From positions 1 to 64,000 of IMG/VR virus record IMGVR_UViG_3300029288_000101: a stretch of DNA of 64,000 nucleotides; one strand, 5' to 3'. The notes below the pieces were generated by a model. The model searched no databases. It was given only the letters and a program-made list of their open reading frames with translations, and was not told where the DNA came from. The DNA comes from a virus (Duplodnaviria > Caudoviricetes). This document shows, in pieces, positions 21,779 to 43,358 of the stretch; position 1 is the first letter of the stretch, and every line of letters starts with the position of its first letter. A program made the position numbers and the translations under genes.

Positions 21779-22819
21779 TTATCTTGCCAACATTCCTCTT
21801 GTCCAACCTTGTTCTAAATAAATATTTAGTTCTTCAGGTTTAATGTATTTGCTAATTTCTCCATTGTTAATACATTTCTTACCACACATATCTTTTTTCT
21901 TTCTACTAATTGCTTCTGAAAATTTAATTCTATTTTTAGATTTTAATAAACCCTTAAACCAGCGATGTTCTAAATAAAATTGAAGCTCCTCTGCTTTTAC
22001 AAATCTACTTATCTTTCCATTATTTACACCAATCTTACCTGTAGAACTTTTTCTTTTCAATTCTCTAGTTTCTAAAGAATTCTCACCTAAACCTTTGCTC
22101 CAGCCTTGTTCTGAATAAGATTCCAGTTCTTCTGGCTTTATGAATTTTCGTCCTTCTCCTTTATGAATCCAAATTTTTCCTTTATTATTTGCTGTCTGTC
22201 CTGGTTTAAAACAACCAGAATTATCTTTGTAAGCGTTTGGGTGCTCTTTGACGAATTTTTGTTGAGCTAACTTCATATTCTCGCAAGCTTCCTCTGATTT
22301 TAATTTTACCTCAGGATGCTCTTTGTAGAATTTCTTGCGTGATTTGCTTTGTTTATTTCTTGTTTCTGAAGAAGGTTTGTGTCCAACCTTAAATTTTGAC
22401 ATTTTCTTTCTATGTTCTTCGCTTTTAGGTTTATTCTTTAAAGCATCTCTAATTTTATCTTTTGATTCTTGTCTCCAAACTCTTTCTTTGCATGCTTTTG
22501 CAATTGCTTGCTTCGCTTTCTCTTTATGTTCACTCTTAAATCCACCACCACCTCTTGTTAAATTATATCCTATCTTTGGATTTGTAGCATCTAATTTCTT
22601 TATAAAAACTATCTCCCAAGCATTTAATTGGTCATCAGCTTTACAATGTTTTAAGATTTCTTTCTTAAAGTTCTTCTTGCCATATTTCTTAATAGCTCTA
22701 CTAATTAATTTACCAGAACCAAAATATTCAGGATTATTATAACTATCTTGACCAACATAAATTTTACTATTTATTATATTTGTGATTAAATAAATTATTC
22801 TATCTTTCTCTTTTTTCAT
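21779..22819 (-). CDS. GIY-YIG (Seg-like) homing endonuclease
   Basis: IIYLITN..N.KIYVGQ..Y.GSG..KYG..F.KEIL..GYN; NUMOD3 and NNG...GW repeats. Confidence 0.9.
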   Translation of the reverse strand: MKKEKDRIIYLITNIINSKIYVGQDSYNNPEYFGSGKLISRAIKKYGKKNFKKEILKHCKADDQLNAWEIVFIKKLDATNPKIGYNLTRGGGGFKSEHKEKAKQAIAKACKERVWRQESKDKIRDALKNKPKSEEHRKKMSKFKVGHKPSSETRNKQSKSRKKFYKEHPEVKLKSEEACENMKLAQQKFVKEHPNAYKDNSGCFKPGQTANNKGKIWIHKGEGRKFIKPEELESYSEQGWSKGLGENSLETRELKRKSSTGKIGVNNGKISRFVKAEELQFYLEHRWFKGLLKSKNRIKFSEAISRKKKDMCGKKCINNGEISKYIKPEELNIYLEQGWTRGMLAR

Positions 22820-22917: not shown

Positions 22918-24423
22918 TTACAAGCCAATATTAATAAGTCTAGTCATCTTTTTAGGTGCAAACAAGAGCATTGTACCATACAATAACACCATAAAACGTA
23001 CAGCAGGGCTGATGATTGCGAGGTCCATTTTCATGAGAGGTGCCAGTTGGCGGAAAGCGTAACATTCTTCATCATTTTGAATTAGGAATGCCTGGTCAGT
23101 GTTAGGAAGTATCCTATTTACATCACGAACTACATTACCTGCTCCGCCATCATAACCAGCTGTTCTTTCAGCAGCAGAAATGGTAAATAATGGCCAGAAA
23201 GTAGTTGAAGCCACAGAAACAGGAGCTTTCGTACTTCTGTAGATAATAAAACCAGTTGCAGGATTTGCTCCACCAGCAGGTGTAAATGCTAAATCAACAG
23301 CACCGCCAGCAAGAATTGCAGCAACCCCACCTGGATTAAGTACTGTAATAGCACCTTCTCCAAAACGGTTTATTGGACATACAGCATAATAATAATTGCC
23401 AGCATCACCAGCACCCCATAAACTGTTTGCAGCAGTAGGAGCAACAGGAGTTGCACTAATAGCAACTACAGCACCAGGAGCTAACACTGAAGTGGCAGCT
23501 GTTGTAGAGGTCTTTTTGTTTTCTTTATTTAAAAAGATATCATAGTTTAAATTCACACGACCATATTGTGAATCAAAAGCTACAACTCTCTGTCCCATTA
23601 CACCTGCAGCAACCTGGTCGCTGTTAGGAGCAATAAGTTTATTTCCGTAAAAATTTTTGACAAATGTCGAAAGAACCTTTGGCGGAGCAAAGAAGTCAGA
23701 ACCAAAACCGTGGTTCTCAACGATACCTTCATTTGCAGCTTCCAGATGAATTTCTTTCAGATAATCACCACGTAAATCAACTACAGAAGGATTATCATTA
23801 TAATATGCATTTTTATCAGCATAATCAGTGCTAAAATGTTGAGCATATAGACCATTAAATTCTTCCGGAATGATAGCTGAATTAGCACGAGCAATTGCAC
23901 GGTCAACTTTACGCAAAATCCAAAGAGAGCCATTCTTTACTTCTCTGTCAATTACACTACCAATCATTGTATTTACCAATGTCATCGGATGTGTTACAGA
24001 TTTTGTTACTCCTAAGAATTTTACTAACTGTGCACGTCTTACATACGTACTGTCTTCTTCATTCGGAAGTTCGCCCTCAACTACAAAACCACCTCTTTCA
24101 GCACCATAACTGGTTAGTTGATTAAATTCTTCAACTGTGTTATAAGCTGGGAGCTTCGGTACTTTTTTCCACAGCATTATTTCACTTTCTTTAAAGGTGA
24201 TAAGTTTCAGAGTTTTATCCAAACTTTCAACTTTCAAAGGAGCACCAGAAGCAGTTGTTGAGTTCAACGTCTGCATTCCTGTTATTTCCTGTGCTTCAAG
24301 AGCTTTTGACAATTCATTCAATTGTTCTTGAGTTGTATTAGCATTGCCAGCTAATACTTGGTCTACAACATTAGGATTTTGATAATCCTGCATATTGATT
24401 CCTAAATTCATCATATTATTCAT
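22918..24423 (-). CDS. Major capsid protein (Herelleviridae-like)
   Basis: ELSKAL..G..GA.LK.ESLD..LK.T, YG..G.F..E, EF.GL, L.P.MK..LA...LYG...L.APKK. Confidence 0.92.
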   Translation of the reverse strand: MNNMMNLGINMQDYQNPNVVDQVLAGNANTTQEQLNELSKALEAQEITGMQTLNSTTASGAPLKVESLDKTLKLITFKESEIMLWKKVPKLPAYNTVEEFNQLTSYGAERGGFVVEGELPNEEDSTYVRRAQLVKFLGVTKSVTHPMTLVNTMIGSVIDREVKNGSLWILRKVDRAIARANSAIIPEEFNGLYAQHFSTDYADKNAYYNDNPSVVDLRGDYLKEIHLEAANEGIVENHGFGSDFFAPPKVLSTFVKNFYGNKLIAPNSDQVAAGVMGQRVVAFDSQYGRVNLNYDIFLNKENKKTSTTAATSVLAPGAVVAISATPVAPTAANSLWGAGDAGNYYYAVCPINRFGEGAITVLNPGGVAAILAGGAVDLAFTPAGGANPATGFIIYRSTKAPVSVASTTFWPLFTISAAERTAGYDGGAGNVVRDVNRILPNTDQAFLIQNDEECYAFRQLAPLMKMDLAIISPAVRFMVLLYGTMLLFAPKKMTRLINIGL

Positions 24424-26219: not shown

Positions 26220-26879
26220 TTATTTTTCTTTTTCTCGCCTTTTCTCCCAACCTATTTTCGCAGACTCACTCATCTTTTCCAATGTCTCTTTCGTATAAAC
26301 ATTTGTTTTTCCTTTGTGCCAAGGTTCTTGATTTTTCTTAAAACCATGAGTATTTCCAATCAAACCTTCGTTCAATCTTCTTACAACTTCAGGATGTTCT
26401 TTAAAATATTTCTTACAAGATTTACTAATTTTCTTTTTTGTCTTTCTTGATAATTTACCTCCCCTACGAGTCTCGCTCATTTTCTTTTTCGCTTCTTCTG
26501 GCATCTTTCTTCCTGTTGCTGCTTCTCTCATTAATTGTTTTGTTTTTTCTGAAACAGTTCGACCTTTACCACCTTCTCCTCCATCTGTCATGTTATAACC
26601 AAACTCATCACCATGTTTGCAAATATTTGTTTTATATTTAGCTATATAAAATATCTCCATCTTATCTAACAAATTTTCAGGACAAATACAAACTCTCTCA
26701 ATCTTAAAATTATCTATCCCATATTTTTTGATTGCTTTATGTAAGCGAAAAGCACCTTTTTTAGATTCAGATTTTTCTATATGTCTTTGGAATCTCTTTA
26801 AATAACCATCTATGGTTTGTCCAAAATACAATTTATTGTTTACAATACAAATTATCTTATATATTTCACCTTTTCTCAT
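26220..26879 (-). CDS. GIY-YIG homing endonuclease (NUMOD3)
   Basis: GEIYKI..NNKLYFGQT, R..H, KYG, GYNMTDGG. Confidence 0.88.
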   Translation of the reverse strand: MRKGEIYKIICIVNNKLYFGQTIDGYLKRFQRHIEKSESKKGAFRLHKAIKKYGIDNFKIERVCICPENLLDKMEIFYIAKYKTNICKHGDEFGYNMTDGGEGGKGRTVSEKTKQLMREAATGRKMPEEAKKKMSETRRGGKLSRKTKKKISKSCKKYFKEHPEVVRRLNEGLIGNTHGFKKNQEPWHKGKTNVYTKETLEKMSESAKIGWEKRREKEK

Positions 26880-26966: not shown

Positions 26967-29900
26967 TTATTTCTTTTTCTTTCCTTTTAAATATTCAAAA
27001 CCTTTCTTCGTTAAATGAACAGTCTCATCTTCACCTTCAAATTGATTAAGTCCAACAAAACCTTTCCTCTGTAAATGTCCTAAGATTGCATTATCTGATT
27101 TTCCTCCACTTACAGAACTAGTCCAAACTGGATTATTTATAACACTTTCATCATCAGAATCTTGATACTCACTTTTCAAAACTTTTCTTAACACAATAAT
27201 TTCTTTTTCTGTTAATCCTCCAACTTTCTCTCTCTTCTTTTCTTTTATTGTTGTCTCTTTCTTCACTTCTTTCCTTACTTTTTCTTTTTGCTCATCTGTT
27301 AATTTAACATATGCCTTACCATACATTAAATTAGAACGAGAAGCGAATTTCATATTTAATTTTTGTAATTCTTCTTTTAAATTCTCTTCTGTTCCTTTCT
27401 TTTCCCCTTTAATTGGTTTTACTTTCTCTGGAATCTTAGTCAATATCCTATCTCCATATTTTACTTTCACATAAGCACCAAGTCTGCCTTCTCGCATCAT
27501 CATAAATTCTGCTGCCACTTCTTTTCCATCCACCATTATTTTTACTTTATCACCTCGTTTGAAGCCTAATGGATGTTCAATTTCTTTTGCCATGCCATAA
27601 GATTTAATTTTATCAAAAATCTTATCTCCTTTCTTTTGCTTATCTTCTGATGAGAGTATTTTTATTGTTTTCTTTGGTTGAATCTTTGCTTCAACTACTT
27701 TTGTATCTTCATCTTCTTTTCTTCGTTTATTTTGAAAATTCACTTTTGCTTTTGAATAACCTTCAAAAGCAACTTCATTAAAATGGAGTTTTTTTCTCAG
27801 TTTTTCTAATTCTTCTGGCTCTGTATTAATATTATGCTCTTTTATTCTTATCTCTTCTTTATAATATTTTATAGCATTCTCAGTAGATTCAATTAATTCT
27901 TCTAGACGTTGTTCATATAGTTTTTTTCTCAAAGTAAAGCCTTCTTCGTCCCATGGCTTCACCCAAACCCCTTGACGTTTTCCTTCTTTATTTATAATAA
28001 TTTTCTTTTGAAGTTTTGACAAATCCTTCTTCGCCTTTTCAATATCACCCAGCATACCTTCTTCACCTTGCTGGCTTAATATTTTATATTGTAAATCTGT
28101 AATTAAAATATTAGATTCTAAAAATTCTGATAGATCTTCTGCTTTAATTATTTTATCATCAAAACTTTTTTTAATTTCCTTATTTCTTTGTTTTGCCATT
28201 TCTTCCATCAACTTTAATAAATCATAATAATCTGAAATTTCTCTTAAATGGTCTTCAGCAATTTTACCGTAAACAATTTTTTCAGCCGGAAATTCTCCAG
28301 TTTCTTTATAATAATCTTTAATGAATTGAAAAGTATCTTTGTGTTCTTTTTCCACCTCCACACCCAACTTCAATTGCTTTTTATCTAATTTCTTATCTTC
28401 TGATTTTTTGTCTCCAATTTGTTCTCCTTGTACTTCTTTTGAAGCAAAAGAATAAATAAAAGACTCAAGTTCTTCAGTTTCTATACCAAGCTCTTCAGCT
28501 AACTTATGTACTTCCTCATCAGGTATTTTCTCTCCTTTAAATTCCTTAAGAAAATCTATTACTTTTGTTTTCTCTTTTTTTGTTAACGTTTCCTGAATTG
28601 CCTTCTCAAAGCCATGTTTCTTTGCTTCTGAATAGGCAATAGCTAATGCTTGGTCTCTATCCGTAACAATCTCACCACTCCCTGAATGTAGAGTTCCTCT
28701 TGCAAATTCTCTCATCACTACAGCTATTTTATCTTTACCTTTTAATTTTTTTCGTTTTTTAGTACCAGCACCAAGTTTATCTGAATGTTCCATTGCCATA
28801 TCTTGTTCTTTCTTTGCTTTTTCCACTACATTTTCTTCTTCTAAATTCTTATAATCATCTTTAATCTGATAAATATGCATAGAGCCTGGAATATCCTTTT
28901 CTGGGTCATGTTTCAAAAATGCTTTCAATTCAAAACTATTATCATCTTTATGTCCTGCTGCCATCCAAGCTTCTAATAATTTCACTCCTCTATAATGAGT
29001 AACAATTCCAATATTTTGTCCTTTATATTTCTTTGCTATTCTTTTTATAAAATTCAAAAATCTATCCTTAAAAATATTAAAAGATTCCCCTTTAGAATCT
29101 ACATCTTCCTTACCTTCTTTAGCAGGAACAGGTTTATCTGGATGATTTATGTAAAATATTATCTTTTTCTTGTTCTTAAAGAAATCCTCACCTTGAAACT
29201 TTCCTAAATTCCAAGGGCGCAAATCAAAAGTATAATCTTTTACAGGCAAATCAACCTTCTCAGAAATAATATCGGCTGTTTGTTTAGATCGTTTTAAATC
29301 TGAAGAGAACAACACATCTAAGTCATCCTTTTTTAAAGTTTTTGCAACATCTTTTGCATTCTTAATGCCCTTCTTAGTCAGTGGAATATTTAAATGACCT
29401 CTGACAAAATCTTTAGAATCATTGTTTTCTGCATTCAGCTTTGTATTGCCGTGCCTAATTACAAATATATTTGTCGTTCCTTTTTTATCTTTAGGAATTT
29501 CTTGTTGAATAGCTTTTTCCATAATATTTTCTTCTTTTAATTCTTTATCTTCTTGATTAATATCCGTACCATTTTCTTCTTTTCCTTTTTCATCAAAAAT
29601 CCATTGCAAATTTTCTGGAAGATTGTATTCATCAGGGTCAAGCGACTCATCAGAAAAATCATCAGTATCATCATCATTTTCTTTTTTCTTAATCTGATTA
29701 TTAATTTCTGATAAAGTGGGTACTTTCCAAGTTTGTTCTTCTTCTATAGCCTTTAATATTTCTTCCTTATTTACACCAAGCTGTAAAATCCAAGCATCTA
29801 TTATGTGGGGATTTACATAACTTGATTTCGCCATGCTCGGTGAATTATTGAGTTTTTTTGATACTCGGTTGAAAGTATCTTTCAGCTTATCACTTATCAA

Positions 29901-31091
29901 TCTTTTTATCTTCGATTTTTTTTCTGGCAAAGGTGGCGGAGGCATTGAAAATAAAATATCCTTGGCTATGCTACTTGCAATATAGGTTCTAAGGTCTTTT
30001 AATTTAAAACCCTTAAAACCTAACTTCTCACGAAAAGTATCAAATATTTTTTCTTTCGGTACATCAAATAAAAATTCTTTATTTTCTTTCTTTGCTTCAA
30101 ATTTTCGCTGTAATAAATAATCAGCTAATTTTTGATTCTTAATTGAAGCTACATTATGCTTATATGATTTTCCTGTAAAGGAAAAATTAATTTTATCTCC
30201 ATCAATTTCTACACTATCTGGTGATAAGGTTGACACACCACGATTTCCTGTTTTCTTAAATAATGTTTTATCTCCTGGTCTTAATGCTGTATTTGCAATA
30301 ATATTAATGATTGCTGCTGATTGGGCAACATCTTTATCTTCATTATCATAAAAATTATCTGTCTTTATTTTTACCGCTTTCACCGAAGAGTCTGTAATTT
30401 TAGAAATTCTCTTCCACTTTACTTCTGCATTACGTTGTAAAAATTCTCTTGTATAAGCAGAACGAATCTCACCTGTTTTTGGGTCTCTCCATTGCATCAC
30501 CCAATGGTTTAAAGGATCGGTCTCATCGGTTTTTACTTGCTCTTGAGGGACTCCTATTGGTAAACGATTTAAGTTATGTCGTTTCGATATCTCTCCAAAC
30601 CATTCTATTTTCTTTGGCTCTTTTGCTTGTTTTTCTTTCTTTTCAACTCCCTCACCCTTATTTTCTTTACCTTCAGTTTGTTGATTGTCTGTTTCTTCTT
30701 TTGTTTTACTTGTTTTTCTTTTCTCAAGTTCTTTTTTTACCGCTTCTTCTATCTTAGGATCTTTTTTATCTCTTTCTAAATAGGCTTTCAAATCTTTAGT
30801 CTCTGTTTCCTTTGCAAAATCAGTTAAACTCTTCTTTGGTTTATTTTCCTCTTCCCCACCACTCTTCTTTTTATTGAAAGATTCAGCTTCCTCTTTACTC
30901 ACCCATTTTGTTATTTTTTTTCCATGAACATCTGTACTACTTCGTTTAACTAATTTCCCTTCATGAGATGGATCGCCTTTAAACTTATTTGTGTTAAAGG
31001 CTTTTTCAAAAAGAGTTTCATAAGATTTCTGAATAATATTCTTCTTCTCTTTTTTATTTAATAAGATTCTATATGCTTCGTCCTTCTCCAT
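26967..31091 (-). CDS. Multidomain head-region polyprotein: topoisomerase IB, histidine phosphatase, DUF6496-like, DUF5661-like, SH3-like, winged helix
   Basis: TopIB residues ALRPG/FTGKS/KDLRT/LNNSP/SSYVNP; IRHG..SSDLKR..QTA..VTH; VMREF..G.LHSGSG..V..R.QA.AIA.SEA; G.EVEKEH..IA.DHL.E..DYY..L. Confidence 0.8.
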   Translation of the reverse strand: MEKDEAYRILLNKKEKKNIIQKSYETLFEKAFNTNKFKGDPSHEGKLVKRSSTDVHGKKITKWVSKEEAESFNKKKSGGEEENKPKKSLTDFAKETETKDLKAYLERDKKDPKIEEAVKKELEKRKTSKTKEETDNQQTEGKENKGEGVEKKEKQAKEPKKIEWFGEISKRHNLNRLPIGVPQEQVKTDETDPLNHWVMQWRDPKTGEIRSAYTREFLQRNAEVKWKRISKITDSSVKAVKIKTDNFYDNEDKDVAQSAAIINIIANTALRPGDKTLFKKTGNRGVSTLSPDSVEIDGDKINFSFTGKSYKHNVASIKNQKLADYLLQRKFEAKKENKEFLFDVPKEKIFDTFREKLGFKGFKLKDLRTYIASSIAKDILFSMPPPPLPEKKSKIKRLISDKLKDTFNRVSKKLNNSPSMAKSSYVNPHIIDAWILQLGVNKEEILKAIEEEQTWKVPTLSEINNQIKKKENDDDTDDFSDESLDPDEYNLPENLQWIFDEKGKEENGTDINQEDKELKEENIMEKAIQQEIPKDKKGTTNIFVIRHGNTKLNAENNDSKDFVRGHLNIPLTKKGIKNAKDVAKTLKKDDLDVLFSSDLKRSKQTADIISEKVDLPVKDYTFDLRPWNLGKFQGEDFFKNKKKIIFYINHPDKPVPAKEGKEDVDSKGESFNIFKDRFLNFIKRIAKKYKGQNIGIVTHYRGVKLLEAWMAAGHKDDNSFELKAFLKHDPEKDIPGSMHIYQIKDDYKNLEEENVVEKAKKEQDMAMEHSDKLGAGTKKRKKLKGKDKIAVVMREFARGTLHSGSGEIVTDRDQALAIAYSEAKKHGFEKAIQETLTKKEKTKVIDFLKEFKGEKIPDEEVHKLAEELGIETEELESFIYSFASKEVQGEQIGDKKSEDKKLDKKQLKLGVEVEKEHKDTFQFIKDYYKETGEFPAEKIVYGKIAEDHLREISDYYDLLKLMEEMAKQRNKEIKKSFDDKIIKAEDLSEFLESNILITDLQYKILSQQGEEGMLGDIEKAKKDLSKLQKKIIINKEGKRQGVWVKPWDEEGFTLRKKLYEQRLEELIESTENAIKYYKEEIRIKEHNINTEPEELEKLRKKLHFNEVAFEGYSKAKVNFQNKRRKEDEDTKVVEAKIQPKKTIKILSSEDKQKKGDKIFDKIKSYGMAKEIEHPLGFKRGDKVKIMVDGKEVAAEFMMMREGRLGAYVKVKYGDRILTKIPEKVKPIKGEKKGTEENLKEELQKLNMKFASRSNLMYGKAYVKLTDEQKEKVRKEVKKETTIKEKKREKVGGLTEKEIIVLRKVLKSEYQDSDDESVINNPVWTSSVSGGKSDNAILGHLQRKGFVGLNQFEGEDETVHLTKKGFEYLKGKKKK

Positions 31092-31094
31092 TGT

Positions 31095-32015
31095 TTAATC
31101 AATTTCTTTACCATTTACTTTAATCTTAATCTTTGATTCTGTTCTACGCTTTACTGATATAGGTTTATCAAAAGCTTTAGTTTTATCATCCCATTCCATT
31201 CCAATAGATATTGTTTGTAGGGTACATCTGCACCATGGGTGCATCGGTCCTACGACTGGTCGCATTTCAGCTTTCTTTCTCCCAATGTTATTCCCATTAA
31301 ACACTAATTTTTGCAAGTTAAATACAATTGGTTTACTGCCTAATCCTTTTGTTAAATATGCTTTTTGACAAACCTCACAAGCTTCTGGCTTTACATCTTT
31401 ATAAACCAAAGCATCTTTACCTTTTGTTTTAAGGATTTGCATCGCTCTTCCCATATCAAAAGCATCATGCATCACATAATCAGCTACACGGTCAAAATCT
31501 TTTGCCCAATTTCCTGTACTTTTTGATAATTCTAAAGAGAGTTCCTTAATTGATTTTCTTTCAATTATAGCTCTCTCTATTTGTTGTTTAATAGCTTTTT
31601 GGGCTCTAAATTTCTTCCTCTTATCTCCATCAATTATTATTTGAGTAAAATCTTTGCTCATTTTATCTCCCAAACCTTTAATGTCATTATAAGTTTGAAG
31701 TTTAACATATTGCAAGGCTTCTTGTTCTAATTGAGTTAAGGGTAAAAATTTTTGTTCTGATAGAAATTTCTTGAATTGATTAAAGGTTAATTCTTTAATT
31801 CCAGCTTCTTTTACTGCTGCACTGAGCATACCAAATTTAAACTGTTCTTCGATTTTACCTTCTTTTGGAAAATCTGATTTTTTAAAACCAACACCGTTTA
31901 ATAGTTTTTTATCTTTCTCAGTCAAAATCTCAGAACCCACTTGCTTTGCAATAAATAACAAATGAAAATGAGTTACTATCTCTTTAATCTCTTGTATTTG
32001 TTCTGAATTTAGCAT
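31095..32015 (-). CDS. MuF/gpF-like minor head morphogenesis protein
   Basis: ACEVC and C-terminal GPMHPWCRCTL motif; near portal. Confidence 0.8.
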   Translation of the reverse strand: MLNSEQIQEIKEIVTHFHLLFIAKQVGSEILTEKDKKLLNGVGFKKSDFPKEGKIEEQFKFGMLSAAVKEAGIKELTFNQFKKFLSEQKFLPLTQLEQEALQYVKLQTYNDIKGLGDKMSKDFTQIIIDGDKRKKFRAQKAIKQQIERAIIERKSIKELSLELSKSTGNWAKDFDRVADYVMHDAFDMGRAMQILKTKGKDALVYKDVKPEACEVCQKAYLTKGLGSKPIVFNLQKLVFNGNNIGRKKAEMRPVVGPMHPWCRCTLQTISIGMEWDDKTKAFDKPISVKRRTESKIKIKVNGKEID

Positions 32016-32022
32016 TATTTAA

Positions 32023-33777
32023 TTAATCTCCTGTCCAAGTACCCAATTTCGAACCTTTTCCTTCTATAAACACTTTAGCTTTCTGACCATAGCCTTTTGC
32101 TGCTGCTTCTTCTTGCCACTGCTTACTTGTTTTCTTGCTTGCCTCTTCTCTCTCTCTTCGTTCTTCCTCTTTTATTGCTTTTTCTCTATGTTTTTCATAT
32201 AACTCAGAAAAAGTTTTTTCAATTTTCATACCCTTTCTTATAATATCCTCAATCTTAGGTAAATTTTCTAATGCTACTTTTTTGCCTTCTGTAGTACCAT
32301 GTTCTAATTCATTCTCATAACGTCTTCTCCATTCTCTCGAATTAGACATTATTTGCCTAAACTTTACATAATTAACTGATATATCTTTTGATTTTAAAAT
32401 TGACGTGTCTATACTTTCATCAGACGCTTTTTGTCTTTCTGTTCTTTCTTTTCTTTCAAATGGTTTTATATCTCTAAATTTTGAATAAACTTTTTGTAAA
32501 ACACTTTGTAATTCCGGAGTTAATTTAGATGATTCTTTATTTTTATTCTTCTTCTCTTCTCTAACAGTTTTTAAGGTTCTCTGAATAAAATCGTCCTCAG
32601 ATTCTCCTGGGTTAGAAACATAAGTTTTACCTTCATATTCAATGTTCAATAATTTTTGTTCTTTTTTCTTTGATTCTTTTGATTTTGTGTTTTCTTTTGG
32701 TTTTCTCTCAACCTTTTGCAGTTTATCCATTCTTCTATACAAAACTTTTCCATTGAAATTAATCAATTCAAAAGCACCTCTTTTAGTATCTCGATGCTCT
32801 ATATATGTTCCCTCTACTAAACCACCATGAATACTCGGAAATTTAACAATATCGCCTTTTTTAAATTTTAATTCTTTCTCTTCCTTTGACTCTTTTAATT
32901 TTTTAGGTTCTTCTTTTTTCTTTGGCTCTTTTTGTTCCTTATTTTGACTAACTTTCTTAGTCTCTTTCTTCTCCTTTCCTCTAGCTGTATTAAAATAAAT
33001 AACATTCCCTTCCTCATCAATTTTAAACTTCTTTTTATTATCTTCAAGCTTCCTACCTACAGTCATTAATCTTTTTGTCATCCTACCATTCCTGGTTACA
33101 TCCACTAATTCTTTATGCTTCCCTTCGCCATAATCTTTCTTTGATTTTGCTTTTTCAATTTTATCAAAAAAATCAAAGTCTTCAGATAAAACATTATATG
33201 CTTTTTGGATTTTATTATAATTCCTTAATTCTTCTTCCTTCTTAGTAAGTTCTTCTTTAAACCATTTTAATTCATCGGGTCTCTCACTACTTTTAAATGC
33301 GCTTATCTGTTTAGTCAAAGTCTTAATTCTTTCTCTCAATTCTTTTTTAGTAGGTTTTTCTTCATTATTTATTGTTTCTTTCTTTTCCTCCTTTATTACT
33401 ATTTTATTAGGCTGTTGAAAAGCAGCATTCAAACTAATATCTTCAGAACCAATCAAGCGATGCTGATAGAATGTGGTCCCATTTTTATTTGTTACCTTTA
33501 CATTTTCATAATGCTTTGCCTTTTCAATATCATTTTTATCAAACCAAAAATGTTCTCTCTTTCCTTCTTCTGAGATTTTAATAATTTTAATTAAATTAGG
33601 ATTAACTCTCGCTTTCTTAATATCTGTAATAAGTTCTACATGAGTTAAAATTCCGCTCTCAATTGCTTTATCAAAAGCTTCTTCAGTCAAAATTATCTCT
33701 TGTTGAGTGTTTAAAAAAGAAGCGTTTATTTGCTTCTTTATTTTTGCTTGATGTGTTGAAAGGTCTTGAAAATCCAT
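32023..33777 (-). CDS. Lys/Glu-rich modular head-region protein
   Basis: Multiple xxKA motifs followed by beta-hairpin-like segments; SH3-like FKKGD.VK domain. Confidence 0.6.
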   Translation of the reverse strand: MDFQDLSTHQAKIKKQINASFLNTQQEIILTEEAFDKAIESGILTHVELITDIKKARVNPNLIKIIKISEEGKREHFWFDKNDIEKAKHYENVKVTNKNGTTFYQHRLIGSEDISLNAAFQQPNKIVIKEEKKETINNEEKPTKKELRERIKTLTKQISAFKSSERPDELKWFKEELTKKEEELRNYNKIQKAYNVLSEDFDFFDKIEKAKSKKDYGEGKHKELVDVTRNGRMTKRLMTVGRKLEDNKKKFKIDEEGNVIYFNTARGKEKKETKKVSQNKEQKEPKKKEEPKKLKESKEEKELKFKKGDIVKFPSIHGGLVEGTYIEHRDTKRGAFELINFNGKVLYRRMDKLQKVERKPKENTKSKESKKKEQKLLNIEYEGKTYVSNPGESEDDFIQRTLKTVREEKKNKNKESSKLTPELQSVLQKVYSKFRDIKPFERKERTERQKASDESIDTSILKSKDISVNYVKFRQIMSNSREWRRRYENELEHGTTEGKKVALENLPKIEDIIRKGMKIEKTFSELYEKHREKAIKEEERREREEASKKTSKQWQEEAAAKGYGQKAKVFIEGKGSKLGTWTGD

Positions 33778-34219: not shown

Positions 34220-36322
34220 TTATTTTTTCTGTTTTAATTTATTCTTATAAACTGAAATGGCAGAAGCGTAATTTGCCTTCTTTCCACCTTTTGTTAAATG
34301 AGTCACAGCTTTTACCCAAACTCCTTTATCTTTAACAAAAGCAGGAGGATTCTTTATCAAATGTTTTAAATCAAATTTGCCTTCTTTTTTAGTCCCTTCC
34401 TCTTTCCCCTCAGAAGTCTCAATTTTCTTTGCTTCTACTTTCTTCACTTCTTCCTTTTGTGGTTCTTGTCCTGGTCTCAAAATTCGCTTGGGTAATCTTG
34501 CAAAAATCTTATCTCCATATTTTATAAATACATATTCACCACGCTTTCCTGTATTATGACTTTTTACTACACCCTCAACCATCTTACCTTCTTTATTTAA
34601 GAATTTCACTTTATCTCCTGCCTTAAAATGTTCTCCCTCTGGGGTAAAGTCTTTTTTACTTTCTTTCTTTTTTTCTTCTTGAGTTCTTGGTACTATATTC
34701 CCACTCTCATCAACAGTATATTTACTTTTTTCTTGCCTTTTGCGTTCTTCTTCAAAACCTCTCATCTTCGCTTCTTCTTCTTGCTTTACTCTCTTTATCT
34801 GTTCTATCCAAGTTTCTTTCTTTAGCTTGTCTTCCTTCTTATTTTTGGTTTCTTCTATCCCAGTTTTATTTTTCTTTTTAAATATTACTTTAAATGCTTC
34901 TTCAACGAAATCTTTTACTTCATAATCATTATAATCCAATGAATCTATCATTTCTTCTATTGCAATTTCTTGTTTTTGATTTAAAGCCTTTCCAGATTTT
35001 TCTTTCTTCTCATTCTTCTCTTCTTTTCCTTCTAGTTTAGCTATTGAATTTTTAACTGATTTTATTTGATGAAGAACAGCTTTTTTGTTCATTTCAGATG
35101 TCTTAGGCAACATAGTAATATATTTTTTAAGGTTTTGTTTTTCTACCTCAAGTTTATGTTGTTTTTGTTCTTCAGTTTTCGGTTCTTTTTTAACTTCGTC
35201 TTTCTTCTCACCACTAATTTCATAATTATTTTCTAAGTCAACATTTTGAAAGCGAAGTTTTAAATGAGACGGCTCTTTTATAACTACAGTAACCTTTGGT
35301 CCAACACTAACAACTGTAAAGGTTTTATTCACACCACTTTCAAGTTCATGTTTATCATTATCCACACTAAATTTATATAATTTTGATATCTTAGTTCTAA
35401 ATTTCATACCAGGTTGTAATGTATTTTTTAATTCTTCTTTAACATCTTTCTTCTCACCACTTTCTACTTTTTTATTTTCTCCAATAATTCTTAATTCTCC
35501 ATTAGGGTTGATAGAGACTTTATCAGCTTTTAATTTCTCCTTTAAAATTCTCTCTTTTGCTGATGGATTCATCCTATTTATTTGAGACTTTGTGAATTTT
35601 AAATTTAAAAATTTATCTTCTTCTTCAGAACCAAGTTCTTGCCTTCTCTGAAAGGTTTTATTTTTACCGTGGACTGTTACCATTCCCATATGTTTAGCTT
35701 TTTCCAATTCTCCTTCCTCTGCTTTCTCTATTTTTGTTTTTTCGCAATGAATTGTAATATCTCCTTTTTTAATATTTAAATCTTTTGTTTTTTCAGACCA
35801 ACTTTCTGGGAGGATATCTTCTTTTCCAAGTTCTTTTGCTCTCCTCTTAATCCATGCCTTTGCTGCTGCAGGGTCTTTTGCTCTACCAACAGATTTTATT
35901 GCATCTTTCAAATCTTGGCTATTCCTAATAGGAAATGAACCATCCTTCATTGCCTCTCCTTTCTTTGAAAGGTTTTCACGTTCTTTAGTTGAAAAATCTG
36001 TTTTGTTTTTAGCTTTCTCAATATTATTATCAACATACATAACAGAAATATTTCCTGCTTTGTCAGAAACTTTTAAAACCTTTAAAGATTTTAAATCATT
36101 CCACGCTTTATCTATCAATTCCTTCGGTTTACTGTTTGATAGTTCTGCTTTCTTTAATTCTGTTTGAAAAATTCCAATTGCTTCAGAATTATAGTATTTC
36201 CAACCAAATTCCTCCACTGCTTTTTGAAATAATTCGTTAGTTACAATGATTTCTTTTTGAACACTACCACCTACACGCTGACTTACCAACGCTTTTTGTA
36301 AAACATCAAATTTTGCTTCCAT
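34220..36322 (-). CDS. Lys/Glu-rich modular head-region protein with DUF6582-like and SH3-like domains
   Basis: ERE.L...GEAM.DGSFPI....DL..AI...GRA.....AKAWI.RRA..LG....LP.SW; FKAGDKVK domain; many xxKA motifs. Confidence 0.65.
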   Translation of the reverse strand: MEAKFDVLQKALVSQRVGGSVQKEIIVTNELFQKAVEEFGWKYYNSEAIGIFQTELKKAELSNSKPKELIDKAWNDLKSLKVLKVSDKAGNISVMYVDNNIEKAKNKTDFSTKERENLSKKGEAMKDGSFPIRNSQDLKDAIKSVGRAKDPAAAKAWIKRRAKELGKEDILPESWSEKTKDLNIKKGDITIHCEKTKIEKAEEGELEKAKHMGMVTVHGKNKTFQRRQELGSEEEDKFLNLKFTKSQINRMNPSAKERILKEKLKADKVSINPNGELRIIGENKKVESGEKKDVKEELKNTLQPGMKFRTKISKLYKFSVDNDKHELESGVNKTFTVVSVGPKVTVVIKEPSHLKLRFQNVDLENNYEISGEKKDEVKKEPKTEEQKQHKLEVEKQNLKKYITMLPKTSEMNKKAVLHQIKSVKNSIAKLEGKEEKNEKKEKSGKALNQKQEIAIEEMIDSLDYNDYEVKDFVEEAFKVIFKKKNKTGIEETKNKKEDKLKKETWIEQIKRVKQEEEAKMRGFEEERKRQEKSKYTVDESGNIVPRTQEEKKKESKKDFTPEGEHFKAGDKVKFLNKEGKMVEGVVKSHNTGKRGEYVFIKYGDKIFARLPKRILRPGQEPQKEEVKKVEAKKIETSEGKEEGTKKEGKFDLKHLIKNPPAFVKDKGVWVKAVTHLTKGGKKANYASAISVYKNKLKQKK

Positions 36323-36364: not shown

Positions 36365-37987
36365 TTAATCTTCTTTATTCAAATTATTTAAAAATAATTG
36401 AAGACTTTTTTCAATTGGATTAGTTTCCTCTTCTTCAGGAACAAGAATAGGATTTTGTTCTTCCATTGATTCTTGTCCTTCTTCGCCACCGCCTTGCTGT
36501 TCTTGCATTTGATTCTGTTTCTCCATTTGCAATGCATTTGTATAGACCCCGTCTAACAAAATATCTCCTCCCTGCAAATCTTTTAAACCATGAGATCTTC
36601 TCACCTCATTAACAGTTTTAGATACTTTTGATAATTTAGTATCTAAATCTACTTCTTCTTGAGGAGTTAATCCTGTTAGTCCTTCAAAACTAAATTCATA
36701 TTTTCCTTTATAAAATTGAGAAACCAAAAACTTATTTAATCTCTTTTGTAAAAATTTCAATATTGGAATTAAACCTTTATCTCTACTCCATTTCAATCTC
36801 GCTTCATTGTTACCTTCAAACAAAGACTTCTGACCACTGTTACCACCTTGAGAAAAATTGACTTCTGATGGATCCATGGCGAAAACTGCACACGCTAAAG
36901 TCAACAAATATTGTTGATATTTATTATATTCCATCTCACGATTTGACTTTTGCAAATCTACCCATTCTGCTTTATCTGCTTCTAATATTGGAGTTTTATG
37001 AGCATTATAAACGCCACGCATTTGAGAGTTCCACATTTGTTTGAATTCTTGAACCTTACTTTCGTTCAACATTCCTGAAACTCTTAAAATCCCTTTTGGT
37101 GCACTGCCTTGTTTGAAAAATCTCCTATTATATTCATCTCCCCATAACATAGCTGTTACAGTTGCTGTTAGTTCTTCCAACTCACTTACACCATAACCAT
37201 TTAAATAAATACTTGTGTCTGGGTTTCTTACACCAAAACACATTTCCCAAGGATAAAATTCTGCTTTTACTTGTTGTTGATATACTTGAACATAATTAGG
37301 ATAATAACCTTTTATTTTCTTTCTATTAGAAGTTTGGCCTGCTTGATAATTATCATCATCATAACTATCTGCTATGCGCATCGTTGAACTATCTACTGCA
37401 TAAAATTCACACGGCACACCTTTCCTGTTATGAATAACCTCAAAACACATCTGGTCGTATGTCAATGAATCTCTTATTATTTTTCTAACAAAACCATCAA
37501 AATCATCAGCTTCCCAGCTCTGACCGTCACCACAATTCTCAAGAAACTTAATTATCTCTTCTACTTCTTTTCGTTCTTCTTTTGTTAATTCTTCATTTTG
37601 ATCTTCTCCTTCAAAATTCTTCTTTTTCTTTATTTTATAGCCTATGCCAAATCTATCTGATTGTGGTTCTGCAAATGAAGCTATTTGGTTAATTCTTGTT
37701 CTAATTATTGCATTTATTATTGGCGTTTTCGCCATACTCTTTAGCATATTATAGCTTAATGCTGTTGGTTTATCTTTAAAGCCAAAAGAAGCATTAAATG
37801 CTTGAGGGTCAAAAAGAAAAGATTTGCGATCTCCAGTTTCTCTTGTCTGTATCTGATTTAAAACTTGAGAAGCTTTAATGATATCTGAAGGATTATCTCC
37901 AGTCATCATACCTTCTAAAAGTTTAAATTTTTTTACTTCAAGAATTTGTTGAGCTTTCTCAATTTTTGTTAAAGTTGCAGAAGACAT
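36365..37987 (-). CDS. Portal protein
   Basis: RDSLTYDQ..FE, N.YG.SELE, YN.RFF.QG..PKGIL, MEY.KY, DPSEVNF, S.DKGL.P.L, TVNEVR. Confidence 0.92.
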   Translation of the reverse strand: MSSATLTKIEKAQQILEVKKFKLLEGMMTGDNPSDIIKASQVLNQIQTRETGDRKSFLFDPQAFNASFGFKDKPTALSYNMLKSMAKTPIINAIIRTRINQIASFAEPQSDRFGIGYKIKKKKNFEGEDQNEELTKEERKEVEEIIKFLENCGDGQSWEADDFDGFVRKIIRDSLTYDQMCFEVIHNRKGVPCEFYAVDSSTMRIADSYDDDNYQAGQTSNRKKIKGYYPNYVQVYQQQVKAEFYPWEMCFGVRNPDTSIYLNGYGVSELEELTATVTAMLWGDEYNRRFFKQGSAPKGILRVSGMLNESKVQEFKQMWNSQMRGVYNAHKTPILEADKAEWVDLQKSNREMEYNKYQQYLLTLACAVFAMDPSEVNFSQGGNSGQKSLFEGNNEARLKWSRDKGLIPILKFLQKRLNKFLVSQFYKGKYEFSFEGLTGLTPQEEVDLDTKLSKVSKTVNEVRRSHGLKDLQGGDILLDGVYTNALQMEKQNQMQEQQGGGEEGQESMEEQNPILVPEEEETNPIEKSLQLFLNNLNKED

Positions 37988-39026: not shown

Positions 39027-39995
39027 TTACAACAATTCTTTAAATTCTTTTGATGTTAACTTCAACAACTTTTTATCAATCTTCTCACTACCGAAAGTTA
39101 TTTTTGGAACTACATGAGTATAAAACCCTGGATGACCATTACATTCACGACAAAGAGCAAGTTTACTTCTACCAGCGTTCTGTAAATGTAACCGATAAAA
39201 ATTAATCAAATCACTGTTCCAAATATCTATTATGTTTTCTTTCAACACATTACCTAATTTTATTTTACTAAAAAAGTCATTGCAACAAATCAACATATTC
39301 CCTTTCCAATCTATAATTGGTCTTCTAAAAGGAAAAACGCAAATTTTATTTTGATTGCCAGGTTTCATTCCTGCTAATTTGCCGTTCAAAGCACCACCAT
39401 TATTTTCTAATAAATTATAAATCTGACTCTTTTTAGTTGAAAACACAGAGCAGTTTCCAGCTGTAAGATATTTGGTCTTATCAATAAGATCTACTACCTT
39501 TTTATCTTTACCAACTTTTGTGTACACCTCTCCTCCAAGAATTAATCCTCCAATATAAGTTTTAATCTCATACAACCATTCTGCAATCTTTATCACTCTG
39601 TTTCTATCTGAATAGACATTTATTTCCATTTGATTCAAACCAGCTTCAAATAAAATTCTAATATCTTTATCACTCTTAAATAAATCTCCATTCGTATTAA
39701 ACATAATACAAACATTTGGAAGTTTCTTTCGTATATATTTTATCTTTTCAATTAAATTCTTATCTAACAGTGGTTCATTATAAGAGTTCAATTCTATTCT
39801 TCCTTTATAATTCAACTCTTTTAATTGTTTTATTATTTGACTAAAAACTTCATCAGTCATAAATTCTTTTGGCTTTTCATAATAACCAAAACCACAAAAC
39901 TCACACTTCCTGTTACAAAAAGAAGTTGTTTGAATCAAAATTGTATTAAATTGAGGAACTTCTTCCTCTTTCCTTACATTTACTACCTTTTGCAT
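39027..39995 (-). CDS. Radical SAM protein with SPASM/twitch domain
   Basis: CNRKCEFC, NEPLL, TNG, C..PF...I...G....CC.D...LGN...IW...C..C. Confidence 0.9.
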   Translation of the reverse strand: MQKVVNVRKEEEVPQFNTILIQTTSFCNRKCEFCGFGYYEKPKEFMTDEVFSQIIKQLKELNYKGRIELNSYNEPLLDKNLIEKIKYIRKKLPNVCIMFNTNGDLFKSDKDIRILFEAGLNQMEINVYSDRNRVIKIAEWLYEIKTYIGGLILGGEVYTKVGKDKKVVDLIDKTKYLTAGNCSVFSTKKSQIYNLLENNGGALNGKLAGMKPGNQNKICVFPFRRPIIDWKGNMLICCNDFFSKIKLGNVLKENIIDIWNSDLINFYRLHLQNAGRSKLALCRECNGHPGFYTHVVPKITFGSEKIDKKLLKLTSKEFKELL

Positions 39996-41417: not shown

Positions 41418-41856
41418 CCTCGAATAACTTTCTTAACCTTTCTCGTAAATCTGTTGAAGAAAAATGATGTCTTCTTGAATTATAATAATTCTCTATTCCT
41501 TCAATGTTTTTCCCTGTATGTTCTTTATCTTTATACTCTTCCCCAATGATTCTAATATCAGGTAAAAGCACTAACAACATATCAACCAAATCTTCTTCAG
41601 ACTCAAAAGGAATTATATAATCAACACATTCAATAGCCTGTAATTGAAGAAATCTTTCAAACAAAGATTGAATAGGTTTGTTCTTTTTCTTTCTACTAAT
41701 CGTAGGATCCGAAAGGATACCGACAATCAAAAAATCACACTTTGATTTTGCTTCAGCAAGCATAGCAACATGTCCAGCGTGTAAAAGGTCAAACGTGCTG
41801 CATGTAAATCCAATTTTCTTCCCTTCTGCTCTCAGTTTATAAATTTTATTTAACAT
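41404..41856 (-). CDS. Cytidylyltransferase (TagD/RfaE-like)
   Basis: FDLLHAGH, K.KP.Q...ER, R.H..SST. Confidence 0.88.
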   Translation of the reverse strand: MLNKIYKLRAEGKKIGFTCSTFDLLHAGHVAMLAEAKSKCDFLIVGILSDPTISRKKKNKPIQSLFERFLQLQAIECVDYIIPFESEEDLVDMLLVLLPDIRIIGEEYKDKEHTGKNIEGIENYYNSRRHHFSSTDLRERLRKLFEDEKI

Positions 41857-42887
41857 ATCATCTTCATTTTTAATCTTACTATTTCCTTAAATTTTGATTT
41901 TAATTCAAAATTTTTTAAATATTTAATAACTCTTATCCACTGAGTGAGTTCTAATAAATCTAAATAACGCTCCTCGATTTGATATTCCTTAATAAAACAT
42001 TTTTTGAAATAATGGTAATGACTCATGTTATCATCTCTCTCAAAAGAATATAATAACTTTGAAATGTCTAAAAGATAAGAACTGTAACTATCAGGATTGT
42101 ATATCGGATCTATTAAATAAAGTTGACCTTCTTTTATCTCTCTAATCAAATTATCCACTGAAAAATCACCATGACAAAAACTTCTTCTTTCATTATAATA
42201 ATCTTCTTTCAAACGTAAAGCATCTAATACTTTAAAAAAATCTTTGTTCGCTTCGCAATGATTTTTCATCCTCTCAATATAACTTGAAAAACTAATTTCG
42301 CTTGGTATTGACTTGAAAGAATTTATTATTTGAAATAGCTCTTCTTTCCTTAAGAACAAAAAATCTTTTGATTGAATATATTGCAAACAAATAGTTTCAC
42401 CTACTACACTATAAACTTCTGGAGTATAAACTAATCCTCTAATTTTTTGATACCAAGAAGCTTCTGACAGGCTATTCTTTGAATTTTTATAAACTTTATT
42501 CCCTCTCCTTTCGACAGCAGCCCCACTTCCTTCTTTTTTTGTTAAATCTTCTATTTCTAATTGCAAAAATCCTTCTGGTGTGAGAGATTTATCATCAACA
42601 TAATAAGCAGCCAAAATCTTATTAAAAGATAATTGATGATATTTGACACCATATTTAGCGAGCCAATTTTCAATTTGAGTTTGATACTTCTGTTTTGCTC
42701 TTTCTCTATCACCTTCGCAAGAAATAAAACCACGAGCAGTCATTATTATTACTTCCCATCCTGAATGATATAGCTTGTTGATTTTCTCTATTATCAACAA
42801 ATTTGGTTCTGCGTTCTCAAAATCTCTATTCGTTGTTTTAGAAATCGTATCATCCAAGTCAAAAACAATTCTTTTATAATATCTCAT
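41850..42887 (-). CDS. HAD phosphatase (capsule-biosynthesis type) fused to an APH/choline-kinase-like phosphotransferase
   Basis: DLDDTI..TARG..K..YYVDDK; CHGDFS.DN..LIDP..D.SK. Confidence 0.82.
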   Translation of the reverse strand: MRYYKRIVFDLDDTISKTTNRDFENAEPNLLIIEKINKLYHSGWEVIIMTARGFISCEGDRERAKQKYQTQIENWLAKYGVKYHQLSFNKILAAYYVDDKSLTPEGFLQLEIEDLTKKEGSGAAVERRGNKVYKNSKNSLSEASWYQKIRGLVYTPEVYSVVGETICLQYIQSKDFLFLRKEELFQIINSFKSIPSEISFSSYIERMKNHCEANKDFFKVLDALRLKEDYYNERRSFCHGDFSVDNLIREIKEGQLYLIDPIYNPDSYSSYLLDISKLLYSFERDDNMSHYHYFKKCFIKEYQIEERYLDLLELTQWIRVIKYLKNFELKSKFKEIVRLKMKMIC

Positions 42888-43284: not shown

Positions 43285-43358
43285 TGGAGAAGTAGTAAGG
43301 TTCGAACTTACATCTATGCCTTTAGAAGGGGATCGCTTTAACTTTAAGCTACACTTCT
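43285..43358 (-). tRNA. tRNA-like gene with imperfect anticodon arm (Arg-TCT or amber CTA reading)
   Basis: AGAAGTG TA GCTT-AAAGTTA-AAGC G ATCCC CTTCTAAA GGCAT AGAT GTAAG-TTCGAAC-CTTAC TACTTCT CCA. Confidence 0.7.

Follow-up and report, generated by a model that had tools for sequence, protein, structure and literature searches.

A putative multi-enzyme head cargo protein with candidate prohead-protease sites in an uncultured phage

In vaccinia virus, topoisomerase IB (TopIB) is an enzyme of the virion core. In bacteriophage T4, enzymes and anti-defence proteins (the internal proteins IPI-III and Alt) reach the prohead by means of an N-terminal targeting peptide; the prohead protease gp21 trims them at the consensus used for capsid maturation as well, and they are injected along with the DNA. 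Polyvalent proteins of phages join 2-15 unrelated domains in one chain; according to the main text of Iyer et al. 2017 (PMC5512222), their genes adjoin virion genes, and the predictions are that the proteins enter the virion and that peptidases process them, mainly a fused zincin peptidase (MPTase) and in a few cases a C-terminal assemblin-like one. The substrates of gp245 in the phiKZ-like phage SPN3US are many internal head proteins that share the motif of the prohead protease, and long propeptides are removed by several cuts (PMC10052503). Here, an open reading frame (ORF) at 26967-31091 on the minus strand of IMG/VR record IMGVR_UViG_3300029288_000101 was analyzed. The window is the first 64 kb of the single 109,727-bp contig (29-30% G+C) of an uncultured phage of ~110 kb. 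The product of the ORF, P0001, is 1374 aa long and contains 17.6% Lys and 11.5% Glu. With TopIB, His_Phos_1, DUF6496, DUF5661, a Tudor/SH3-like barrel and a winged-helix-like (wHTH-like) domain, it falls within the 2-15 domains of polyvalent proteins. The initial annotation of this DNA had regarded such an architecture as undescribed, which was not borne out: the polyvalent proteins of Iyer et al. 2017 and the prohead-protease processing of head cargo in T4 and phiKZ/SPN3US are precedents.

P0001 is read here as polyvalent-type head cargo that would be loaded in the prohead and cut at its domain joints by the prohead protease, and this is given slightly better than an even chance. The minus strand carries 128 of 131 ORFs, and the head module runs in the order portal, orf700, orf90, orf584, orf306, P0001, a GIY-YIG ORF, a 567-aa protease-scaffold and the major capsid protein. 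About 10 kb of extra genes separate the portal from the protease here, whereas the portal, protease, scaffold and capsid genes of SPO1 adjoin. The protease part of the protease-scaffold (the first ~165 aa) matches the head maturation protease family phrog_1028 (E 1e-42) and shares 38% identity with SPO1 gp3.2.

A short motif connects these proteins. All 11 matches to [ILFVM]-x-K-[AS] in P0001 lie where the initial annotation had placed them. Two of them do not fall in linkers: MAK↓S at 420 (the arrow marks the putative cut) is the S-K-x-x-Y active-site motif of TopIB, and VLK↓S at 1304 is part of a helix in the C-terminal domain. Each of the four recognizable domains has a site no more than 12 residues downstream, an arrangement matched by 6 of 200,000 random placements of 11 sites. 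As had also been noted there, the motif recurs in the capsid propeptide (ELSK40↓AL), at both portal ends (IEK11↓AQ and IEK527↓SL) and in the protease-scaffold, where 14 copies with [AS] or 17 with [AGS] were counted against 1.8-2.7 expected.

In P0001 alone the broad motif is weakly enriched (11 versus 5.8 expected, p 0.027). The form h-[EQ]-K-[AGS], where h is hydrophobic, occurs 6 times against 1.35 expected, a count reached by 2 of 1000 shuffles, and h-E-K-A occurs 5 times against 0.3. Genome-wide, the head module accounts for 23 occurrences of h-[EQ]-K-[AGS] where 4.4 are expected; the 28,346 residues outside it contain 16 against 17.0 expected, and 4 of these 16 are in orf394. The residues preceding the signal are usually acidic. 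Control motifs were counted in seven head-module proteins, with the GIY-YIG ORF and orf90 left out. The forward motif was observed 22 times against 4.1 expected in this set, a count reached by none of 300 shuffles. The reversed motif (7 versus 4.0), the motif with K and E swapped (4 versus 4.4) and motifs with a non-hydrophobic P3 (11 versus 12.5), Arg at P1 (1 versus 1.1) or a non-small P1' (17 versus 21.9) are at expectation and not enriched. Enrichment is again limited to head-module proteins in the phages of loci L001, L003, L011 and L012 and in Chryseobacterium phage MA9V-3. In the last of these, which is cultured, the protease-scaffold contains 21 copies against 2.7 expected.

The capsid protein provides a link to head maturation. 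Its L38-x-K40-A41 is invariant in six capsid proteins, including that of SPO1. In the 463-aa Kayvirus capsid protein 5lii_P, the counterpart of the SPO1 L-N-K-A-L in the alignment is V22-V-K24-S25-F, and the deposited chain 9row_B (439 aa) begins at S25 of that protein. The simplest reading of these alignments is that the mature Kayvirus capsid protein starts after h-x-K↓S, at the position matching K40↓A41 here. Cleavage at Lys-Ser in the capsid protein of phage A511, on which the initial annotation had relied, was not confirmed, as no paper stating the capsid cleavage site of A511 or SPO1 was found; the Kayvirus comparison takes its place. The closest relatives of the capsid protein are from Bacteroides DAC-group phages (45%) and MA9V-3 (40%), followed by Herelleviridae (35%); it is 35% identical to SPO1 gp6.1 and matches the solved SPO1 capsid 9vel with E 1e-75. 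By homology the head therefore appears to be of Herelleviridae type. The phage is read as a myophage distantly related to Herelleviridae, probably with a host among the Bacteroidota.

A search of 5.8 billion proteins gave three full-length relatives of P0001 (P0003, 1046 aa; P0004, 1586 aa; P0005, 1455 aa), and IMG/VR added seven more loci. A tblastn search of P0001 against 50,697 phage records gave short phosphatase and DUF6496 matches only, with no full-length relative. The position of the TopIB gene is the same in this phage and in seven related loci, with the MuF-like gene or portal on one side and the protease-scaffold and capsid genes on the other. Its product ranges from 441 aa (L012, where TopIB is the sole recognized enzyme) through 696 aa (L011) and 1242 aa (L010) to 1586 aa. 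The 441-aa protein consists of a Tudor-like barrel, a site, a hairpin, TopIB, ILQK↓S and an acidic tail, and its gene is directly upstream of the protease-scaffold and capsid genes.

Breakpoints between relatives were taken from MAFFT alignments, because gapped BLASTP alignments crossed low-complexity linkers and the ends of their high-scoring segment pairs were unusable. K447 and A448 are invariant across four homologous proteins while the surrounding linker is variable. P0003 runs from AIEK↓AI straight into the DUF5661 module; in P0001, by comparison, the phosphatase, VEK↓A, DUF6496 and FEK↓A form an insertion whose place is exactly between two EKAI signals. In P0005 the signal takes the form I-[EQ]-K↓G-G, as it does in two other giant head-module ORFs of that phage. 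The helix-hairpin module of P0001 is also present in orf394, P0003, P0004, P0040, P0023 and P0011, always preceded by h-x-K-A. P0011 (1919 aa), a classical polyvalent protein, has three or four copies of it, together with ART-PolyVal, InPase, PBECR3 and RadC. Judged from these alignments, cassettes are swapped at the motif among the TopIB-gene relatives. Comparison of cargo domains in homologues, proposed at the outset as a check, found the motif kept while linkers and cassettes vary.

The loading and cutting suggested in the initial annotation are therefore favored by a motif that is confined to the head module, conserved within variable linkers and aligned with the deduced Kayvirus site. From the domain content, the motif statistics and conservation, the gene context and the module swapping, all of which are directly observed, we infer that P0001 is packaged, that the prohead protease cleaves it and that the products are ejected with the DNA. 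P0001 would be made late with the head genes and would co-assemble into the procapsid. Candidate handles for loading are the hairpin modules, the Tudor/SH3-like barrel that it shares and the MuF-like protein encoded next to it. The SPO1 gp3.2-type prohead protease would then cut the linkers after Lys in h-[E/Q/x]-K↓[A/S/G], and the same enzyme would trim the capsid propeptide and degrade its own scaffold tail.

Cuts at K30, K447, K526, K758, K830, K983 and K1019 were assumed in predicting the fragments and their isoelectric points (pI). Four predicted products are basic: the TopIB fragment (48.0 kDa, pI 9.6), the phosphatase fragment (26.8 kDa, pI 9.3), the DUF6496 fragment (8.0 kDa, pI 9.7) and the C-terminal hairpin/Tudor/wHTH piece (41.4 kDa, pI 9.6). 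The predicted DUF5661 piece has a pI of 5.2 (18.1 kDa), and two acidic spacers of pI 4.1 are predicted at 448-526 (9.4 kDa) and 984-1019 (4.1 kDa). This division would fit spacers that leave and enzymes that stay with the DNA. The basic fragments would remain with the DNA as it enters the cell, and the acidic spacers would be released and may exit the capsid like scaffold peptides.

Several observations weigh against this account. The AlphaFold 2 (AF2) models of the two halves of P0001 were poor, with mean predicted local distance difference test (pLDDT) values of 53 and 47. The pLDDT is below 50 in the stretches that hold nine of the 11 matches, but also for ~55% of all residues, and a linker location is therefore weak support alone (binomial p ~0.07). 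Since two of the 11 matches fall inside folded domains, the tetrapeptide must be insufficient by itself for cleavage. The 1459-aa protein of MA9V-3 at the position equivalent to P0001 shows no motif enrichment. The motif was also defined from the same sequences in which it was tested, although its replication in other phages offsets this. Further points of this kind bear on how much of the chain would be cut. Several sites lie in predicted helices of the AF2 models; the site at 1017 is part of a ~35-aa helix-hairpin whose conservation extends to P0011, on a contig of different gene content, and may be structural and not cut; and every mapped prohead-protease cut in SPN3US removes an N-terminal propeptide (PMC10052503).

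These last three points agree with an alternative in which P0001 is packaged but only loses an N-terminal propeptide (at K22 or K30) or is cut to a limited extent. The internal motifs would in that case belong to linker modules, such as the helix-hairpin and scaffold-like helices, that bind scaffold, portal or DNA. N4 vRNAP-type polyvalent proteins, which the main text of Iyer et al. 2017 (PMC5512222) describes as packaged unprocessed, offer a parallel. However, the sites at 447, 526, 758 and 830 have no hairpin after them and each stands right behind a domain, the 14-17 motif copies in the scaffold tail fit degradation, and conservation rests on the motif and not on the surrounding linker. 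Limited processing is considered unlikely, with perhaps one chance in a handful.

It is less probable still that a different protease cuts the joints, at a time either before packaging or after injection; this would be a host enzyme or, in relatives, the polyprotein's own zincin domains. Processing by MPTase is favored in the main text of Iyer et al. 2017 (PMC5512222), and the homologue P0004 has two HExxH zincin-like peptidase domains. P0011, which carries the same hairpin module, also has two HExxH by sequence reading, while Pfam gives it no peptidase family. In the window, on the other hand, HExxH is absent from all head-module proteins, and the signal is shared with the capsid propeptide, scaffold and portal, which by analogy are prohead-protease substrates.

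A similarly low probability is assigned to P0001 being a late cytoplasmic multi-enzyme that never enters the virion and serves DNA relaxation and nucleotide or phosphate chemistry in replication or packaging, with the motif serving another purpose or inherited with the cassettes. Packaging is, after all, something we infer, and DNA undergoing replication or packaging would be a plausible substrate for a phage TopIB. Such a role is difficult to reconcile with a gene position between MuF-like/portal and protease-scaffold genes that is kept across the clade, with a motif otherwise confined to proteins known to enter proheads, and with Tudor-like and hairpin modules common to P0001 and other head-module ORFs. 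Finally, the initial annotation had named Lys/Glu-rich composition as a possible source of the motif frequency, and the residue content of P0001 and the marginal enrichment of the broad motif in it would allow this or helical periodicity, but none of 300 composition-matched shuffles came up to the head-module count, reversed and permuted motifs show no enrichment, other K/E-rich proteins beyond the head module have zero copies and the pattern is replicated in five other phages, so that a composition artefact is effectively excluded.

The ORF, its coordinates and its domain order were as first annotated, supported by profile and structure-sequence searches; the features are collected in Table 1. 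In a phmmer search of the PDB, the TopIB domain matched 6z01 (E 1.7e-8) and 2f4q (E 2.6e-6), and also 2h7f and 1a41 (E 2e-5 to 7e-5). P0001 itself falls below Pfam reporting for PF01028, while its homologues score 1e-15 to 1e-20. The R-K-R-H/N-Y pentad of TopIB is present, and its five residues are invariant in the MAFFT alignment. The phosphatase, of branch 1 of the histidine phosphatase superfamily, scores 97.2 bits against a cut-off of 21.7 for PF00300, with the VIRHGNT and GIVTHY (second-His) motifs visible; no NCBIfam equivalog cut-off was reached. In a Foldseek search with the model of the second half, no match was obtained at E <= 0.001, and only the small barrel (aa 1182-1219) gave consistent matches, to Tudor, chromo and SH3 folds (TM up to 0.78 on the target, E 0.05-0.3). 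Homologues of the C-terminal 80 aa occur as many stand-alone proteins of 80-100 aa, and a winged-helix fold is plausible for this domain. Relaxed-threshold Pfam searches with the hairpin, N-terminal and C-terminal pieces were uninformative, and ESM Atlas searches with residues 1285-1374 and 1010-1240 returned unnamed clusters only (scores <= 0.87).

Table 1. Features of P0001 and of associated genes, with positions in the window. Cut sites and cargo assignments are candidates.
Feature	Position	Strand	Remarks
Major capsid protein	22918-24423	-	phrog_752, E 3e-70; L38-x-K40↓A41 in propeptide; K40 codon 24304-24306
Prohead protease fused to scaffold-like tail, 567 aa	24484-26187	-	protease aa 1-~165; tail with 14-17 motif copies
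P0001: C-terminal winged-helix-like domain, aa 1293-1370	26982-27215	-	phrog_25342
P0001: Tudor/SH3-like barrel, aa ~1170-1225	27417-27584	-	common to orf700, orf584, P0003, P0009 and L012 cargo ORFs
P0001: predicted coiled coil, aa 1049-1127	27711-27947	-	AF2 model, low confidence
P0001: helix-hairpin module, IEK1019↓AKKDLSKLQKKIIINKEGKRQGVWVKP	27954-28043	-	aa 1017-1046; beta-hairpin 1028-1044
P0001: helical module and DUF5661, aa 831-964	28200-28601	-	DUF5661 at 901-964; followed by IKK975↓S, IIK983↓A
P0001: DUF6496 module, aa ~780-827	28611-28754	-	Pfam match 786-827; FEK830↓A directly after
P0001: K758 of VEK↓A	28818-28820	-	past phosphatase
P0001: histidine phosphatase His_Phos_1, aa ~539-746	28854-29477	-	Pfam match 542-706, E 1.2e-27; RHG present
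P0001: acidic spacer, aa 448-526	29514-29750	-	pI 4.1; ends in MEK526↓A; sequence and AF2 model
P0001: K447 of ILK↓A	29751-29753	-	4 aa past TopIB domain
P0001: topoisomerase IB, aa ~165-443	29763-30599	-	R271, K308, R368, N416, Y425 conserved
P0001: Lys/Glu-rich stretch	aa 70-160	-	sequence and AF2 model
P0001: first beta-hairpin, aa 45-66, GKLVKRSSTDVHGKKITKWV	30894-30959	-	conserved in homologues
P0001: N-terminal 30 aa, putative propeptide	31002-31091	-	candidate sites IQK22↓S, FEK30↓A; conserved in P0003, P0004
orf306, MuF/SPP1 gp7-like minor head protein, 306 aa	31095-32015	-	invariant CxxC...HxxCRC; weak hidden Markov model matches
orf584, second candidate cargo	32023-33777	-	motif sites, hairpins, Tudor/SH3-like barrel
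orf700, third candidate cargo	34220-36322	-	motif sites, hairpin variant, Tudor/SH3-like barrel
Portal protein	36365-37987	-	PF04860; candidate sites near both ends: K11, K38, K527
orf394	54384-55568	-	motif 4 versus 0.3-0.4 expected; FEK↓AKKDLSKLVKKIVVDKNGRRRGVWV, helix-hairpin module as in P0001

The proteins orf700 and orf584 have the motif, hairpin variants and the Tudor-like barrel in common with P0001 and are probably cargo as well. The sole protein beyond the head module that is enriched in the motif, orf394, is encoded directly downstream of the large terminase (55645-57348) and may be another packaged protein. The MuF-like orf306 is conserved throughout the clade. It ends in TAA, in frame with the P0001 start one codon on (GAT TAA ACA ATG, 31089-31097, minus strand). 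A MuF-polyprotein fusion by readthrough was considered and dropped; L003, L010 and L011 lack the in-frame arrangement, which is therefore probably due to chance. Upstream of the P0003 gene, L005:54-2012 encodes 652 aa with Intein_splicing and DUF559 matches and may be an intein-interrupted MuF-like gene.

A NUDIX hydrolase is encoded just upstream of the protease-scaffold gene at L006:13556-14263 and L001:16354-19248, as a stand-alone 235-aa protein in MA9V-3 and as the N-terminal domain of a 964-aa protein in L001, and is a candidate for another head cargo enzyme of the clade. In L009 (ENA contig k141_2272919), P0011 stands in a row of giants with a 1806-aa Eco57I/SNF2 protein, a 711-aa protein without a Pfam match and a protein of at least 1076 aa with LPD1. 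Two GIY-YIG (homing-endonuclease-like) ORFs are present in the head module of the window, both on the minus strand, one between the polyprotein and protease genes (26220-26879) and the other right after the capsid gene (21779-22819). Just upstream of the portal region, the same strand encodes a radical-SAM-like protein (39027-39995), a phosphoheptose-isomerase/PNK-like protein (41850-42887) and an ATP-dependent DNA ligase (43923-45290). A tRNA at 43286-43358, also on this strand, has an 8-nt anticodon loop (cttctaaa) and is given by ARAGORN as Arg (TCT) or CTA (amber-reading), undecided between the two. The late genes are open under table 11.

If the proposed cargo role of P0001 is correct, prohead proteases would act as polyprotein processors, as in RNA viruses, beyond their part in propeptide trimming. 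Cut sites and the mature injected proteome would become predictable from sequence in many uncultured Bacteroidota phages, and a type IB topoisomerase and a histidine phosphatase would be added to the kinds of enzyme that phages inject. The short signal with the hairpin and Tudor-like modules would also supply candidate tags for loading foreign proteins into capsids. A bolder and rather doubtful extension is that the acidic-x-h-E-K↓A/G/S signal, the ~30-aa helix-hairpin and the Tudor/SH3-like barrel form a portable "load-and-cut" kit, by which phages of different lineages could tie arbitrary enzymes to the procapsid core and set them free as individual basic proteins that accompany the DNA. In that case TopIB would be a conserved enzyme that is injected and acts on the entering genome, and the first virion-delivered type IB topoisomerase in a phage. 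Proposed cargo loading and cutting can be tested directly, because the motif and the genes for the protease, scaffold, MuF-like protein and capsid are also present in relatives that have been cultured, namely MA9V-3 and the Bacteroides DAC phages.

No description was found of a protein with prohead-protease consensus sites at each of its domain joints, or of TopIB as cargo conserved in head modules. Apart from Iyer et al. 2017, the literature search gave no paper pairing polyvalent proteins with a prohead protease. In the main text of that paper (PMC5512222), TopIB or histidine phosphatase was not found as a polyvalent domain ("phosphatase" is absent and "topoisomerase" occurs once), and the helix-hairpin module is not mentioned.

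Comparison with the known systems shows both likenesses and differences. P0001, if packaged, would resemble vaccinia TopIB as a small TopIB inside a virus particle; the vaccinia enzyme is that of a eukaryotic virus, is not part of a polyprotein and is distant in sequence (1a41 and 2h7f, at the E-values given above). The locus resembles those of MuF polymorphic toxins and SPP1 gp7 (Jamet et al. 2017) in having a MuF-like protein beside variable effector domains just past the portal region. In the MuF toxins, however, MuF is fused N-terminally to the effector, whereas orf306 is a separate ORF with its own stop codon. In SPN3US the mapped cuts release N-terminal propeptides and not several enzymes per chain, and the protease family and the motif differ.

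Like the cargo of T4, P0001 carries the same consensus as the capsid protein, in its case at the level of sequence. The T4 cargo proteins come from separate genes with one N-terminal cut each, whereas P0001 is one chain from which several products would be made by internal cuts after Lys. T4 also uses gp21 and L/I-x-E, and gp21 is not of the SPO1/HK97-related type; the protease here matches phrog_1028 and SPO1 gp3.2, and its candidate sites follow Lys, which places it outside the gp21 family.

The closest counterparts are the polyvalent proteins. They share with P0001 many unrelated enzymatic and DNA-binding domains, a place among the virion genes of a portal-terminase phage, rapid domain shuffling between relatives, and predicted packaging, delivery with the DNA and processing into units. 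The helix-hairpin module of P0001 recurs in P0011 beside ART-PolyVal, InPase, PBECR3 and RadC. None of the polyvalent hub domains (MPTase, ArdC-N, ART, SNF2, DdrB-ParB, PBECR, MuF, LPDs) was detected in P0001 by Pfam, and it has no HExxH. The main difference concerns the cutting itself: for polyvalent proteins, processing by a fused MPTase or a C-terminal assemblin-like peptidase has been proposed, whereas P0001 is proposed to be cut in trans, at the consensus it shares with the capsid, scaffold and portal proteins.

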